A stretch of DNA of 64,000 nucleotides from the IMG/VR virus record IMGVR_UViG_3300025652_000060, positions 1,336-65,335 of that record. One strand, 5' to 3'. Below, in pieces: positions 3,030 through 59,106 of the stretch (position 1 is its first letter; every line of letters begins with the position of its first letter). Under the pieces are notes generated by a model. The model searched no databases. It was given only the letters and a program-made list of their open reading frames with translations, and was not told where the DNA came from. The translations under genes were made by a program, and so were the position numbers. Source of the DNA: a virus. Lineage: Duplodnaviria; Caudoviricetes.

Positions 3030-4884
3030 AATTACCATTGAGGAAAAAGATGCTTTAAGAGCGTTGACTAAATTGACTCGGGGTATTGATACAACAACAG
3101 ACAAGGCAAGTAAGGGCGCTAAAAAAATGGACATGGCCTTTGCATCATTCGCGGGCAATCTTGCGGCGGGCGCAGCACTTAAAGGACTTGGGTTAATTAC
3201 TGACGGCGTGAAAGCCATGGTTTCACAAATTGGAACACTCACAGACGCCGCCAGTGTTCAAGAGGACGCAATAAACGACCTTAATAACGCTTTAGTCAGA
3301 GGCGGGGAATTCAGCAAGAAAACGTCTTTAGAAATGCAAAAGTTTGCAAGCGAATTGCAACAGGTCAGTAAGTTTGGTGACGAGGCTATACTTTCACAAA
3401 TGGCCTTCGCTCAATCAATGGGCGCAACGGGTGAACAATCAAAAACAGTTCTTGCGGCAGCGGCAGATATGGCAAGCGCATTAAACATTGATCTTAATAG
3501 CGCCGTCAGGAACATATCAAAAACACTAGGCGGTTACGCCGGGGAACTTGGTGAAGTAATACCGGAACTTAAAAACTTAACAGCGGAACAATTAAAAGCC
3601 GGGTTAGGTATTGACCTACTAGCGCAGAAATTCAAAGGCGCGGCAGAGTCACAAATTAGCACGTTCAGCGGAGCAATTGAACAGGCGTCAAACACGTTTG
3701 GTGACTTACAAGAAACTTTAGGTTTCACTATCACACAAAGCCCCGTTGTTATCGCAGCAATTAAAGGTTTATCAAAAGGCGTTCTTGCACTAGACGGAAT
3801 AGTTAAAGAAAATTCAGAGACAATAAGAAGTTACGCAGAGGGTGTTTTAATTGGTGCCTTAACAGGTGGTATAAACTTCGCGGGACAAGCTGTTATAAAA
3901 TTCAACGCTGTTCTAGTATCAACAAAAAACTTTATGAACTTCCTAGTAGACGGATCACTTGCGGCATTGCAAGGCCTCCAGGAATTTAGTGCGGGGCTTA
4001 TTGGTGCCGTCTCTAGTGTTCAAAACTTTCTAGGGTTATCAACAGAGGCCTCCGATTCATTACAAGCGTCAGTTTTAAGAAGTATAGAAGTTACAAAACT
4101 AGCTAGGCTTGCGAATGACGAGGAAGTGGCCAACAGAATAATGAGACAACAAGAACTTGCGGAAAACGTTACAATGGTAACGGAAACAATTAACACCGCA
4201 ATACTTTCAGAGGCTACCGTTAAAGAGGGAACTGATTTAAGAATTGTTCAGTCAGAAAAAAATAAACAGATACTATTAAAAAAGACTAGAGACGACGCAG
4301 AAAAAGCAAGACAGAAAGCCGCTGAACAAAACTTTCTGTTTCAAAAAGCTTGGGATAAACAAACACAAAAAGAAAAAGTTGCCTCACTTAAAGGCGCTTT
4401 AGGAACAATTGCTACATTACAACAGTCAGGATCTAAGGAAGGTTTTGCAATCGGTAAGGCAGCGGCAATTGCTGACCATGGAATTAATGCAGTTTCCGCC
4501 GTTTCAAAAGCTTTAGGATCCGCGCCGCCTCCGTTCAATTTTATTCTAGCGGGATTAGTAGGCGCAGCAATGGCAGTTCAAGGCGCTAAAATAGCAAGCG
4601 CGTCCCCTCCGGGTTTTGAAAATGGTGGTGTAGTCGGCGGCTTTACAGGCGCAAGCGCGGGGCCTGACAATGTTAATATCAATGCCCGTCGTGGTGAAAT
4701 GTTTTTGAATGCCTCACAACAACGTAACTTGTTTGACGATATTAATAACAGATCCACGGGAAGTAATGACGGCGAAACAATAGCGGCGTTAGTTAATCAA
4801 CCTATAATTCTACAAGTTGATAACAAGGAAATAGCACGGGCCGTAAGAAACGCGGAACGTGACGGCTTTCAGGTAGCAATATGA
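3007..4884 (+). CDS. Tape measure protein
   Basis: 625 aa, Ala/Gly-rich helical; C-terminal FENGGVVGG motif; position. Confidence 0.85.
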   Translation: MANEVSVEITIEEKDALRALTKLTRGIDTTTDKASKGAKKMDMAFASFAGNLAAGAALKGLGLITDGVKAMVSQIGTLTDAASVQEDAINDLNNALVRGGEFSKKTSLEMQKFASELQQVSKFGDEAILSQMAFAQSMGATGEQSKTVLAAAADMASALNIDLNSAVRNISKTLGGYAGELGEVIPELKNLTAEQLKAGLGIDLLAQKFKGAAESQISTFSGAIEQASNTFGDLQETLGFTITQSPVVIAAIKGLSKGVLALDGIVKENSETIRSYAEGVLIGALTGGINFAGQAVIKFNAVLVSTKNFMNFLVDGSLAALQGLQEFSAGLIGAVSSVQNFLGLSTEASDSLQASVLRSIEVTKLARLANDEEVANRIMRQQELAENVTMVTETINTAILSEATVKEGTDLRIVQSEKNKQILLKKTRDDAEKARQKAAEQNFLFQKAWDKQTQKEKVASLKGALGTIATLQQSGSKEGFAIGKAAAIADHGINAVSAVSKALGSAPPPFNFILAGLVGAAMAVQGAKIASASPPGFENGGVVGGFTGASAGPDNVNINARRGEMFLNASQQRNLFDDINNRSTGSNDGETIAALVNQPIILQVDNKEIARAVRNAERDGFQVAI

Positions 4885-56170: not shown

Positions 56171-56785
56171 ATGAAAAACCAGTGTGAACGCATTGTTGAA
56201 ACAGAACTGCATAAATTAGTACCGCATCCAAAAAACCCCAATACGCATTCTGAGGAACAGATTGAGCGCCTAGCTAAATTAATAAGCTATCAAGGCTTTC
56301 GTTCTCCCATAGTCGTATCAAATCAATCGGGCTTTATAATCGTAGGGCACGGAAGGTTAGAAGCTGCAAAAGGCTTAGGGCTTGAAACGGTTCCAGTAAT
56401 ATACCAAGATTTTAAGGATGAGGCGCAAGAATACGCCCACATGACCGCTGACAATGCCATTGGCTCATGGTCTAAATTAGATTTCTCTCAGATTAATACG
56501 GATATTTTAGAACTCGGTCCTGAATTGAATATCGAACTTTTAGGTATAAAAGAATTCACAGTGGATCCAAGCGAGATAGAACTGCCAGATTTAAAGGCAG
56601 GCGATAACGGACCGTGTCAGAAAGTAACTTTTACCTTATCAGATGAACAGGTTGATAAGGTGAAGGAAGCAATGGAAAAGGCTAAATCTTTCGGACCGAT
56701 ACATGATGACCTAAATGAAAATTCAAACGGTAATGCCCTTGCGAGAGTGGCTGAATTATTTATAAGTAGCTGCGATGTCAGCTAA
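56171..56785 (+). CDS. ParB/Srx N-terminal domain protein
   Basis: PHPKNPN.H, GFRSPIVV, IVGHGRLEAA, ADN motifs. Confidence 0.85.
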   Translation: MKNQCERIVETELHKLVPHPKNPNTHSEEQIERLAKLISYQGFRSPIVVSNQSGFIIVGHGRLEAAKGLGLETVPVIYQDFKDEAQEYAHMTADNAIGSWSKLDFSQINTDILELGPELNIELLGIKEFTVDPSEIELPDLKAGDNGPCQKVTFTLSDEQVDKVKEAMEKAKSFGPIHDDLNENSNGNALARVAELFISSCDVS

Positions 56786-57404
56786 AAGCATTGAAATTAA
56801 ACCGATTAGCTCCAAGGATGCAAATGCGATCTGTAAAAGATTTCATTATTCTGGGAAAGTTGCTGCGATTTCACAGCTCCATTTTGGCGTTTTTTATAAG
56901 GGTCAATGTGAAGGGGTAATGCAATACGGACCGCCAATTGATAGGCGCAAGTTATTACCATTAGTTAAGGGCACAAAGTTTAATGATTTTCTTGAGCTTA
57001 ATCGAATGGCTTTCTCTGATAATCTCCCTAGGTTTTCAGAATCTAGAGCCATTGGAATCGCTCATCGAATTATTAAAAAGAATTATCCACATATTAAGTG
57101 GATCATATCGTTTGCAGACGCAACGCAATGCGGTGATGGGACAATCTATCGAGCCTCTAATTTTCTGCTAACTGCTATTAGAAAAAACTCTACTATCTAC
57201 AAATTGAAGGATGGTGAGGTAGCCGCCAAGCACGGTACGTCTAAGAAGGATTTTAATGGGGCTGAGAGGCTTGTTGGGTATCAGTTGCGATACATTTACT
57301 TCTTAGATCCAAAAATGCGGGAGAACCTAACTGTGCCAGTGATTCCGTATAGTGATATTGAAAGATTAGGCGCATCAATGTATAAAGGAAAAGTGCGTGG
57401 GTAG
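56775..57404 (+). CDS. mom: Mom-family DNA adenine modification (carbamoylmethylation) enzyme
   Basis: HYSGK, GVMQYG, LELNRM, SESRAI, ISFADATQ..DGTIYRASNF motifs typical of Mom-like GNAT proteins. Confidence 0.8.
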   Translation: MSAKSIEIKPISSKDANAICKRFHYSGKVAAISQLHFGVFYKGQCEGVMQYGPPIDRRKLLPLVKGTKFNDFLELNRMAFSDNLPRFSESRAIGIAHRIIKKNYPHIKWIISFADATQCGDGTIYRASNFLLTAIRKNSTIYKLKDGEVAAKHGTSKKDFNGAERLVGYQLRYIYFLDPKMRENLTVPVIPYSDIERLGASMYKGKVRG

Positions 57405-57469
57405 TTTAAAAGTAAAACAGACTAATTCCATTAGTAAGAAAGCGGTGCATTACCGACTTCCACGCTCCA
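57395..57469 (+). tRNA. Atypical tRNA-Gly(UCC), probably non-proteinogenic
   Basis: Acceptor GCGTGGG/TCCACGC, discriminator T, encoded CCA; D stem GTTT/AAAC; anticodon TCC at 57427-57429; T loop TGCATTA; no D-loop GG. Confidence 0.8.
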
Positions 57470-57488
57470 TTATAATCCCGAGATATTT

Positions 57489-57848
57489 ATGAGCGATGAA
57501 AAAGATTTAGGCGGTAGACCTAGAATAGAAATTGATATGGCTGAACTTGATAAGCTCTGCACTTTGCAGGCGACCATTGAGGAAATGGCATCATGGTTTG
57601 ACTGCTCAATTGATACGGTAGAGAGAAGAATTAAAGAGCATTCTGGTAAAGGATTTGCGGAGTATTTCGCACTAAAGAGAGGAAAGGGTAAGATATCCCT
57701 TAGAAGAAAGCAGTTCGAAACCGCCATGAGTGGAAACGTAACCATGCAAATCTTTCTAGGGAAAAACTACTTAGGGCAATCCGATAAGCAAGAAATAGAT
57801 CATAAGGTTTCTGAAATCAAAATTTCTGGCGACGATGGAGACCTCTGA
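57489..57848 (+). CDS. Terminase small subunit (different family from A)
   Basis: GRP, HTH, SLRRKQFETA..GNVTMQIFLGKNYLGQ.D. Confidence 0.85.
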   Translation: MSDEKDLGGRPRIEIDMAELDKLCTLQATIEEMASWFDCSIDTVERRIKEHSGKGFAEYFALKRGKGKISLRRKQFETAMSGNVTMQIFLGKNYLGQSDKQEIDHKVSEIKISGDDGDL

Positions 57849-59106
57849 GGGATTTAAAAAAACCCTTATTCAAGTTAAGGCGATTACGCTTCTAGCGGGT
57901 CATGCTCTCCACAATATGCTTTATGGTGGATCCAGATCTGGGAAAACTTTTATCCTATGCTATGCGGTTATTCTAAGAGCCTGCAAAACTAAATCAAGGC
58001 ATTGCATTTTAAGATTAAAATTTAATCATGCGAAAAGAGCCATCTGGTTAGATACAATTCCAAAAGTAATGAGCATCTGCTTTCCAGACCTTACTTATAA
58101 AACTAATTCCACTGATTATTATATCGTGCTGCCTAATGGCTCAGAGATCTGGGTCGGTGGATTGGATGATAAGAAACGAGTGGAGAAAATTCTGGGGAAT
58201 GAATACTCTACTCTTTATTTTAACGAGTGTTCTGAAATTCCTTTAAGCTCTATTAATATTGCCCTTACTAGATTGGCTGAAAAGAATTCACTAGTTAAAA
58301 AGGTTTACTATGATGAGAACCCACCAAGCAAAAAACATTGGAGCTATTGGCTCTTTATAAAATTTTGGCATCCGGAGGCTGAGGAAGAATTAGACCCTGC
58401 AGATTATTCCTGCATGGTGATGAACCCTAAGGATAATCTTGAGAATATAGATCCTGATTACATAAAGAATATTTTAAGCAAGCTACCCGAAAACGAACGC
58501 ATCCGCTTCCTCAATGGTGAGTTTGTGGACGGGGACGATGGGGTCACTTACTACGAATTCGACCGTGAAATCCATACAAGTTCTGAGGCTATACAAAGAC
58601 CAGGTACTACTTTCATAGGGATGGACTTTAACGTAGATCCTATGACGGCGGTTCTGTTTCAATTCTACAATAATACTATCTGGGTTTTCGATGAGATATT
58701 CCTTCGCAATTCCGATACCCCTAAAATGTGTAAAGAATTAAAACGTAGAGGGTATGCGGGGCTAAAAGTTATCCCTGATTCTACAGGTGGAAATAGGAAA
58801 ACGTCAGGTAGATCTGACTTTGAAATACTAAAGGAAAATGGTTTTGTATGCGAGAATGTTTATAACCCTTTCGTAACTGACCGAGTTAATAACCTGAATA
58901 GACTTTTAGCAGCTAATCGCATTATGATTAATCCTAAGTGTAATAAACTTATCAACGATCTTGAACAGGTCGCTTGGAAAGATAATAAACTAGATCAAAA
59001 GGGCGAATCGAAGCTCTTGACCCATATTTCTGACTGCCTAGGTTATGGTGCTTGGAAAATGGAGCCAATAGTCGGCAAATCAAAACGAGCAATAAGGTTA
59101 AGTTAA
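57835..59106 (+). CDS. Terminase large subunit
   Basis: Close homolog of 22661. Confidence 0.92.
   Translation: METSEGFKKTLIQVKAITLLAGHALHNMLYGGSRSGKTFILCYAVILRACKTKSRHCILRLKFNHAKRAIWLDTIPKVMSICFPDLTYKTNSTDYYIVLPNGSEIWVGGLDDKKRVEKILGNEYSTLYFNECSEIPLSSINIALTRLAEKNSLVKKVYYDENPPSKKHWSYWLFIKFWHPEAEEELDPADYSCMVMNPKDNLENIDPDYIKNILSKLPENERIRFLNGEFVDGDDGVTYYEFDREIHTSSEAIQRPGTTFIGMDFNVDPMTAVLFQFYNNTIWVFDEIFLRNSDTPKMCKELKRRGYAGLKVIPDSTGGNRKTSGRSDFEILKENGFVCENVYNPFVTDRVNNLNRLLAANRIMINPKCNKLINDLEQVAWKDNKLDQKGESKLLTHISDCLGYGAWKMEPIVGKSKRAIRLS

Follow-up and report, generated by a model that had tools for sequence, protein, structure and literature searches.

Why should the gene for a DNA-modifying enzyme end inside what appears to be the gene for a transfer RNA (tRNA)? 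The question is raised by a stretch of 64,000 nucleotides from a virus of the Caudoviricetes (positions 1,336 to 65,335 of the IMG/VR record IMGVR_UViG_3300025652_000060). This stretch is called the window here and comprises almost the entire 65,335-base record, which is rated complete. The gene in question is mom, a member of the family named after the Mom protein of phage Mu. An earlier note, made from the letters of the window, had claimed that the last codons of mom, GTG CGT GGG TAG, supply the acceptor strand of a tRNA and that the stop codon TAG at 57402-57404 is tRNA positions 8-10. The sequence is as claimed. A cloverleaf of 75 nucleotides can be drawn from position 57395; it has UCC as its anticodon, U73, and a CCA that is encoded and ends at 57469. 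The gene, the element and its parts are arranged as follows.

56775..57404, plus strand: mom, gene of a Mom-family GNAT protein (PF25680), 209 codons and a stop
57402..57404, plus strand: TAG stop codon of mom, positions 8-10 of the element (sequence and end of the reading frame)
57395..57469, plus strand: tRNA-Gly-like gene, 75 nucleotides (covariance model R1 and covariation, see below)
57394/57395: predicted RNase P site
57395-57401 / 57459-57465: acceptor stem, seven pairs, the final one G-U
57404-57407 / 57415-57418: D stem, GTTT/AAAC
57420-57424 / 57432-57436: anticodon stem, four pairs and one G/A
57425-57431: anticodon loop, ATTCCAT, with TCC at 57427-57429
57441-57445 / 57453-57458: T stem, with one extra, bulged A at 57456
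57466: discriminator T; 57467-57469: CCA

The assignment of the open reading frame (ORF) at 56775..57404, which encodes 209 amino acids on the plus strand, to the Mom family is secure. It matches Pfam PF25680 with an E-value of 2.5e-50 and a score of 171.4 bits (cut-off 27.1), covering positions 2-201 of the 202 in the profile, and it matches PHROG 1384 as well. The protein shares 37% identity with Mu Mom across 206 residues and retains the arginine of the ELNRM motif and the serine of the SESR motif. This arginine and the second serine of SESR align with Mu Mom and are invariant in the alignment (A1) with which relatives were sought. They would correspond to the catalytic residues R111 and S124 given for Mu Mom in PMC13219725, assuming a numbering offset of +10 that was deduced from the residue spacing of 13 and from the delta-10 construct of that paper.

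The relatives of this Mom carry the evidence that the element is not a chance fold. They were collected from IMG/VR by a scan with the single protein (12 loci) and with alignment A1 (the best 80 of 457), and from contigs representing one genome per species (the best 80 of 140), where the single-protein scan gave no relative and the alignment-based scan succeeded. The 172 loci fetched included seven duplicate contigs, leaving 165 distinct loci. These come from phages and prophages of many phyla, and their Mom proteins are 45-71% identical to that of the window. The 3' ends of the mom genes of the relatives have the same element, in which acceptor positions 4-7 change in step on both sides of the stem. 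A simple rule, consisting of a seven-base-pair acceptor stem, a GCG start, a T and CCA, holds at 117 of 161 true sites, as against 3 of 161 when the complementary strand is read; at three control offsets it holds at 2 of 158, 7 of 144 and 1 of 135 sites.

A covariance model of the element (R1) finds a match with E ≤ 0.01 at 155 of the 165 Mom loci (83/92 and 72/73). The window element scores 75.1 bits (E-value 3.3e-16) over the full model, positions 1-76, and is the sole match in the window, although this score is inflated because the window is a seed row of the model. Members of the family have an acceptor of the form GCG...CGC-U(-CCA), a T stem with a single bulge following the third pair of its 3' strand, and NCC in the loop of anticodon type, all of which can be read in the window element; the Dehalococcoides "pseudo-tRNA" described below is counted in this family. 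The ten loci missed are L015, L146, L027, L029, L030, L034, L057, L084, L086 and L087, the first two being contigs that end just after mom (2 and 32 nucleotides). At L030 a shorter tRNA-like stretch follows mom at about 3220-3290; it has a D arm, a TTCGATT T loop and an ACCA end, apparently lacks an anticodon arm, and is not matched by R1.

The helices of the element covary. In alignment A2, for which the T stem played no role in the selection of sequences, the T stem pairs in 98.2% of the cells, all five of its pairs show double changes, and the bulge is always retained. Alignment A3 holds 46 members with a D arm and was made with MAFFT, not fitted to the model. From it RNAalifold predicts, unaided, the acceptor, anticodon and bulged T stems. 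With the D stem included, the pairing in A3 is 96.2%, compared with 70.9% after shuffling and 36-45% in slid controls, and 18 of the 22 pairs have double changes. Alignment A4, which comprises 101 R1 matches and from which all counts per 101 matches given below are taken, has 97.4% pairing, compared with 69.4% after shuffling and 36-45% with partners slid, and double changes at 20 of 22 pairs; being model-fitted, it leans towards R1. All four helices covary in both A3 and A4. Because relatives share the element and its stems covary, it stands beyond chance in spite of an unremarkable single fold, and the comparative sequence evidence is that the tRNA-like element is real.

The tools that work on a single sequence give a different picture. 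ARAGORN reports no tRNA gene in the window. Rfam gives no match at gathering thresholds in the window; with the limit relaxed to E ≤ 10 it still reports no tRNA within 57200-57700, and RF00005 has no match in the whole 65,335-base record. The fold of the single sequence is no better than chance (z -1.88 for 80 nucleotides, z 0.13 for 161 nucleotides), and a blastn search of 56700-57560 against the phage collection, at the distant setting, gave no match. The arms are canonical in size, with a seven-base-pair acceptor stem, a four-base-pair D stem, a five-base-pair anticodon stem, a seven-nucleotide loop, U33 and a purine at 37. The elbow of a tRNA is held by a regular five-base-pair T stem, a T54-psi55-C56 loop and G18G19 in the D loop. 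These features are absent here, as the T stem is irregular at 57456, the T loop reads TGCATTA, with G55, and the D loop reads AAAAGTA, without a GG. The extra T-stem base, G55 and the lack of the D-loop GG account for the silence of the standard finders. That silence is not absence of the element, and the comparative evidence overrides it.

What kind of tRNA the element resembles is evident from its most conserved positions. G1, C2, G71 and C72 are each present in 101 of 101 matches, G3 and the discriminator U73 in 98 each, and G3-C70 is among the near-invariant positions of the family. The three bases of the encoded CCA are found in 95, 88 and 93 of 101. In the anticodon, C36 is invariant (101/101) and C35 occurs in 83 of 101, a number lowered by some alignment slips; position 34 is A in 55 and U in 38. 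G3-C70 is known from work on E. coli as a determinant for glycyl-tRNA synthetase (GlyRS). For S. aureus tRNAGly the determinants given in the main text of PMC7826273 are G1-C72, C2-G71 (printed there as C2-G70), U73, C35 and C36. The window element carries the full set of G1-C72, C2-G71, G3-C70, U73, C35 and C36.

Some members of the family are nearly ordinary. At the mom end ARAGORN calls tRNA-Gly (tcc/acc) in L024, L036, L103, L104, L108 and L109, and a "tRNA-???" with a two-base anticodon in seven further loci, and RF00005 passes its gathering threshold in 3 of 20 loci sampled from the 165 (L103, L089 and L107). Since the set read by GlyRS and the CCA are kept and the family grades into normal tRNA-Gly, the element is best described as derived from tRNA-Gly. 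The tRNA of the earlier note is thus real, of the glycine type and tied to mom, but it is deformed and not a normal tRNA. The T-stem bulge occurs in 100 of 101 matches (A 77, U 20, C 3), and position 55 is G in 78 and U in 23. Many members have loops of 5-6 nucleotides, and others, 68-70 nucleotides long, lack the D arm. With its GlyRS set kept and with a bulged T stem, G55 and a D loop without GG, the element looks chargeable but unfit for translation, a judgment on EF-Tu, ribosome and elbow features that draws on general knowledge of tRNA and on analogy with staphylococcal carriers. Of 139 loci, 105 have a pyrimidine at -1 and 99 have an A at -2, a pattern that fits the substrate preference of RNase P. 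According to ARAGORN, RF00005 and R1, the element is the sole tRNA-like gene of this 65-kb phage.

The position of the mom stop relative to the element was compared in 139 distinct loci, including the window, with the frame set by the Mom match in 125 of them. The stop is upstream of the element in 32 loci, inside it in 19 and beyond it in 88. In the 107 loci with the stop in or beyond the element, excision of the RNA would therefore remove the stop. The overlap in the window is 10 nucleotides long (57395-57404), and its exact form, with TAG as the stop at positions 8-10, is found in 11 of 139 loci and requires at least three changes on the tree. In the well-supported clade of the window, the six rows have stops at element positions 8, 7, 53, 78, 86 and 6. 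On a FastTree tree of 125 Mom rows, with change counts that precede the reassignment of L070, the three-way stop category changes at least 16 times (shuffled mean 34.8) and overlap versus upstream at least six times (shuffled mean 17.1). Overlap is thus the rule among these Mom loci, while the place of the stop drifts. The conservation of the overlap in homologs, proposed in the earlier note as a check, holds for the most part where a stop in or beyond the element is concerned, and fails for the exact stop position and for the upstream-stop loci. Its claim that gene and tRNA are inseparable is nearly right, with the element matched at 155 of 165 loci, though not at every one.

In 13 of the 32 upstream-stop loci another gene, either a second Mom paralogue or a small ORF of a different kind, precedes the element. 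A Pfam search of 10 of 14 such special loci identified six second Mom genes and one Tad2-like gene and gave no match in three. The remaining upstream-stop loci are mostly from Bacillota and have the stop 4-47 nucleotides 5' of the element. The last conserved Mom codons form the motif MY[KRL]G, which marks this Mom clade and is lacking in Mu Mom. In most relatives the element begins 2-23 nucleotides past this motif, and the mom frame consequently runs into it.

Where the frame reads through, the tails look alike (GGAxPTxTLQ). Nevertheless, the phase in which the T arm is read differs among the 89 read-through loci: it is phase 0 in 63, phase 1 in 17 and phase 2 in 9. In the window and in L001 the T arm is not translated by mom at all, the frame ending at element positions 7-8. 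Because translation passes through the T arm in any of three phases, the conservation of the arm is at the level of RNA and not of peptide.

The genes on either side of mom in the window are the following.

56171..56785, plus strand: gene with a ParB N-terminal domain (Pfam ParB_N, E-value 1.8e-08; PHROG 620/498)
57489..57848, plus strand: terS, small terminase subunit gene (PHROG 309/606), beginning 20 nucleotides 3' of the element
57835-59106: TerL, large terminase gene (Pfam Terminase_6N/Terminase_3 over 57835-59103), with the portal gene next

The end of the ParB-like gene, including its stop, overlaps the ATG of mom by 11 nucleotides (56775-56785). A ParB-mom overlap, of 8 nucleotides, is also found in the Psychrobacter phage vB_PmaS_Y8A, and ParB and Mom genes are paired in Dehalococcoides islands. 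This recurrent pairing suggests that the ParB-like protein and Mom may work together. The sequences that contain the stretch 56300-57900 are all DNA contigs of freshwater metagenomes, with no RNA source listed among them. The earlier note had allowed for a tRNA made from its own internal promoter. A consensus scan finds no sigma-70-like promoter on the plus strand within mom, though the promoters of the host may follow another consensus. The same kind of scan finds no terminator-like site or T run 3' of the element, and neither the ORF list nor the comparison of neighbourhoods has an integrase near mom.

Psychrobacter phage vB_PmaS_Y8A (OQ059336.1, locus L173) is the only cultured relative found. 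Its Mom, annotated "hypothetical protein", is 60% identical to that of the window, and its ParB-Mom-terS order is the same. Two tandem elements, at L173:3156-3223 (53.2 bits) and L173:3228-3296 (52.8 bits), fill the 166-nucleotide gap between mom and terS; they are unannotated in GenBank. The mom stop lies 8 nucleotides before the first copy. Since this phage and the 32 of 139 loci have an upstream stop, the overlap is not required for the pairing of mom with the element.

Other arrangements were also observed. The element is on the strand of mom in 154 of 155 matched loci, the only opposite one being L050:3163-3236 (minus strand, 65.3 bits), directly after mom. In L160 tandem copies at 3286-3354 and 3356-3423 are one base apart, and the mom frame passes through both, giving a repeated tail GGATPTxTLQ. 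Two tandem Mom genes of the Bacillota type occur at L051:3132-3989, L071:3132-3980, L073:1743-2708, L079:3132-3980, L088:3132-3983 and L156:3117-3995; the second gene has Pfam E-values of 1e-36 to 1e-51, and the single element follows it. In L089 a Tad2-like (Thoeris anti-defence) gene at 3231-3533 lies between mom and a near-canonical tRNA-Gly at 3546-3618 (UCC; RF00005 47 bits), an arrangement that is a counter-defence cluster.

A pattern scan for the T-arm motif gave 36 genome stretches, of which 35 loci were judged for linkage to Mom. The motif touches a Mom-family ORF in 21 of these, is without one in 6, and lies on stretches too short to judge in 8. The loci lacking a Mom ORF on the strand of the motif, within the stretch available, are L185, L189, L192, L204, L208 and L214, where the neighbours include a GFO/IDH/MocA oxidoreductase, a glycosyltransferase and proteins of no known type and do not point to a role. 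The same scan found the T-arm motif of the window family at the 5' end of Mom ORFs in contigs of Chloroflexota/Dehalococcoidia. In seven such loci, mostly Chloroflexota, the Mom homology begins 0-6 nucleotides after the CCA. The nearest in-frame start there is inside the element or 5' of it, so that the element would be translated as the N-terminus of Mom. The elements of these seven loci end at the following positions, on the element's own strand.

L188: 2196
L197: 2757
L199: 279
L203: 2955
L210: 213
L211: 2673
L213: 4689

More distant mom genes were checked in 10 loci picked from 169 phage records, with flanks of 1.5-2.5 kb. R1 has no match near mom in Mu (1.5 kb, E ≤ 1), in Aeromonas pAEv1818 or in the Pseudomonas Mu-like phage F_KK2074sp, and none near six distant Mom-like loci. 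Owing to this absence, the element is a marker of one Mom clade.

The reading that we prefer, with a probability of roughly 0.55, is that an RNA derived from tRNA-Gly has been fused to one Mom clade and is Mom's private glycyl carrier, made from the mom transcript, and that the fusion is selected while the exact position of the stop is incidental. A glycyl carrier of Mom's own is the most likely role because Mu Mom moves glycine from Gly-tRNAGly to the N6 of adenine, as described in the main text of Silva et al. (2026, Nat Commun 17:4787, PMC13219725). The element would be transcribed within the ParB-mom-terS message, cut by the host RNase P at 57394/57395, trimmed at its 3' side to the encoded CCA, and charged with glycine by the host GlyRS. 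By analogy with Mu, Mom would then take glycine from the charged element and use it to modify adenines of the phage DNA at N6. Binding of the element to EF-Tu and the ribosome would probably be prevented by the bulge in its T stem, by G55 and by a D loop that lacks GG, and the result would be a private carrier that is no drain on translation. Ribosomes that finish mom would have to open the D arm and the 5' strand of the acceptor stem, whereas a cut at 57394/57395 would leave mom without its stop codon. Because the stop lies within the element, message and cofactor precursor would compete on each transcript, every copy being one or the other and never both at one time. The selected benefits of the fusion would be co-transcription, linkage and perhaps processing timed to follow translation. 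The fusion is rated as selected and the stop position as incidental because loci without the overlap persist.

Several points weigh against this explanation. Every step, from transcription through cleavage and charging to the use by Mom, is one that we infer. The irregular D and T loops might also be an obstacle to RNase P, to the CCA enzyme or to GlyRS. Mu Mom needs no private tRNA, Mu being without the element, and the T-arm motif is found apart from any Mom-family ORF in the 6 of 35 genome loci mentioned above, with a further 8 too short to judge. An incidental stop position is also at odds with the frame itself. In 87 of 106 loci no stop interrupts the mom frame anywhere in the element, compared with 88 of 212 for the other two frames (raw counts that ignore kinship), and the seven loci of another clade have the whole element inside the 5' end of mom. 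Both observations are a hint of selection for ribosomes to travel through the element. In a bolder form of the argument, it is by design that the cofactor gene lies within the frame of the enzyme it serves, at the 3' end in the window and at the 5' end in Chloroflexota. Translation would unfold the RNA and shield the message, and excision would remove the stop or the start. This would set the ratio of enzyme to carrier and its timing and would cap a toxic enzyme by non-stop decay, without a regulator protein. We consider this bolder form doubtful.

The main rival is the interpretation of the earlier note, which as a whole is partly supported. It regards the overlap as a selected brake on a toxic enzyme that replaces Mu Com: cleavage by RNase P would give a mom mRNA without a stop, trans-translation would destroy the Mom made from it, and terminating ribosomes would block the folding of the tRNA. 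In Mu, tight control of mom by Com is required (annotation). The window phage and its relatives have no com-like gene between the ParB gene and mom, whose start overlaps the ParB-like gene. Such a brake agrees with the 107 of 139 loci that have the stop in or beyond the element, and the short linker shows no excess of upstream stops. Where the element is embedded at the 5' end, processing would sever mom from its start in a similar way. However, the element is kept with the stop upstream in 32 of 139 loci and in the one cultured phage, that of Psychrobacter, overlap has been exchanged for no overlap or the reverse at least six times on the Mom tree, and the stop varies in position among close relatives. 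Moreover, the same geometry could protect the message during translation, which is the opposite effect. We therefore think it unlikely that the overlap was selected as a brake. It is less probable still that the element is a cis-acting mimic, never released or charged, through which Mom or GlyRS binds its own message and exerts feedback on the translation of mom or terS in the way of the tRNA-like operators of synthetase messages. The element is indeed on the mom transcript, usually inside the ORF; it covers the mom start region in one clade and lies 20 nucleotides before the terS start in the window. But a mimic would not need the encoded CCA (88-95 of 101), U73 (98 of 101) or the anticodon bases C35/C36 that GlyRS reads. 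The tandem copies in L160 and L173 and the opposite-strand copy in L050 are better explained by a gene product, and some members are ordinary enough to be recognized by RF00005.

Those ordinary members (RF00005 in L103, L089 and L107, and the tRNA-Gly calls of ARAGORN), together with the motif loci without Mom, are what would be seen if the element were a general phage tRNA-Gly that happens to stand beside mom and decodes GGA/GGG or replaces a host tRNA cut by defence nucleases. The canonical members are few, however, and the bulge in 100 of 101, G55 in 78 of 101 and the many members with loops of 5-6 nucleotides or no D arm make a decoding role very improbable. The element is also a lone tRNA-like gene in a 65-kb phage, and in 155 of 165 loci, which span many phyla, it is found directly next to mom. 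Hardly credible is the last alternative, that there is no functional RNA here and that the element is a C-terminal peptide of Mom, a decayed remnant of a tRNA or attachment site, or a terminator. It would explain why the mom frame crosses the element from end to end in 88 of 139 loci, with tails such as GGAxPTxTLQ, and why the finders are silent in the window. It is contradicted by the use of three phases (63, 17 and 9 of 89), by the covariation of four helices, and by the end of the frame at positions 7-8 in the window and L001. Taken individually, a conserved C-terminal peptide is ruled out by the three reading phases. A terminator is ruled out by the lack of a T run or terminator-like site after the element, and an attachment-site remnant by a cloverleaf that is complete, not a 3' fragment, and by the lack of an integrase nearby.

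The use of charged tRNA-Gly by Mom was settled only in 2023-2026. Against the picture of scavenging from the host, there is now a large Mom clade, with 165 loci sampled, that has its own look-alike of glycine tRNA fused to the gene. If the element is indeed a private carrier, it accounts for an orphan observation of 2011, the "pseudo-tRNA in mom". It would also be a natural tRNA scaffold that may escape EF-Tu. Deposited phage genomes contain such genes unannotated, for example the two copies in Psychrobacter phage vB_PmaS_Y8A. The overlap of ORF and tRNA offers a simple case of a bacterial transcript that would have to choose between being message and being RNA precursor.

Excision of a tRNA or tRNA-like fold by RNase P is known to set the end of a neighbouring RNA in mitochondrial tRNA punctuation, in MALAT1/mascRNA, and in the tufB and secG-leuU operons. 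mascRNA is not aminoacylated. Overlaps between the end of an ORF and a tRNA occur in mitochondria, where the stop codons are completed by polyadenylation, which is not so in bacteria. In such mixed mRNA-tRNA operons of bacteria the tRNA is not known to hold the stop of its neighbour or to be the cofactor of the neighbour's product.

Mu Mom belongs to the same family, PF25680, and its co-substrate is a glycylated tRNA-Gly with a 3' CCA. According to the main text of PMC13219725 it takes all three E. coli isoacceptors and rejects Gly-tRNAAla, and its recognition is thought to be centred on the acceptor end. The authors describe the use of Gly-tRNAGly as scavenging of a host resource, and the terms "phage-encoded tRNA" and "tRNA-like" have no occurrence in that main text. 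Unlike the window phage, Mu has no element near mom and uses host tRNA, and its mom is controlled by Com (annotation).

A closer precedent is found in the ssrA islands of Dehalococcoides. The main text of McMurdie et al. (2011, BMC Genomics 12:287, PMC3146451) describes a conserved 76-base-pair, tRNA-Gly-like "pseudo-tRNA" with the anticodon "DCC" in the ORF of a mom homologue beside a ParB-domain gene. It lies within the first 150 base pairs of the homologue, and no function was proposed there; the report predates knowledge of the Mom co-substrate. The window shares with these islands a tRNA-Gly-like fold in mom beside a ParB gene. In the islands, which are integrative, the fold is at the 5' end, whereas in the window it is at the 3' end, holds the stop codon and is part of a packaging operon, before terS. 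The literature found comprises this observation and the papers on Mom biochemistry, and in their main texts none links the two; the supplements (neighbourhoods of about 9,600 homologues in PMC13219725, Figure S1 in PMC3146451) may already show part of the relation. New here are the 3'-end form with the stop codon, its frequency and lability, the analysis of frames and the conserved T-stem bulge.

The nearest functional counterparts are the non-proteogenic tRNAGly NP1-3 of S. aureus, which are used by FmhB, FemA and FemB (Rietmeyer et al., NAR 49:684, PMC7826273, main text). Like the proposed role of the window element, theirs is that of specialised glycine carriers that have the GlyRS determinants and serve a GNAT-fold transferase outside translation. 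They differ in being free-standing cellular genes with a normal cloverleaf, no T-stem bulge and no overlap with the gene of the enzyme. Their target is peptidoglycan, while that of Mom is DNA, and the window family is not of the staphylococcal lineage. The likeness suggests that the Mom clade may have an orthogonal aminoacyl carrier for the modification of DNA, parallel to the tRNAGly of the staphylococcal cell wall.

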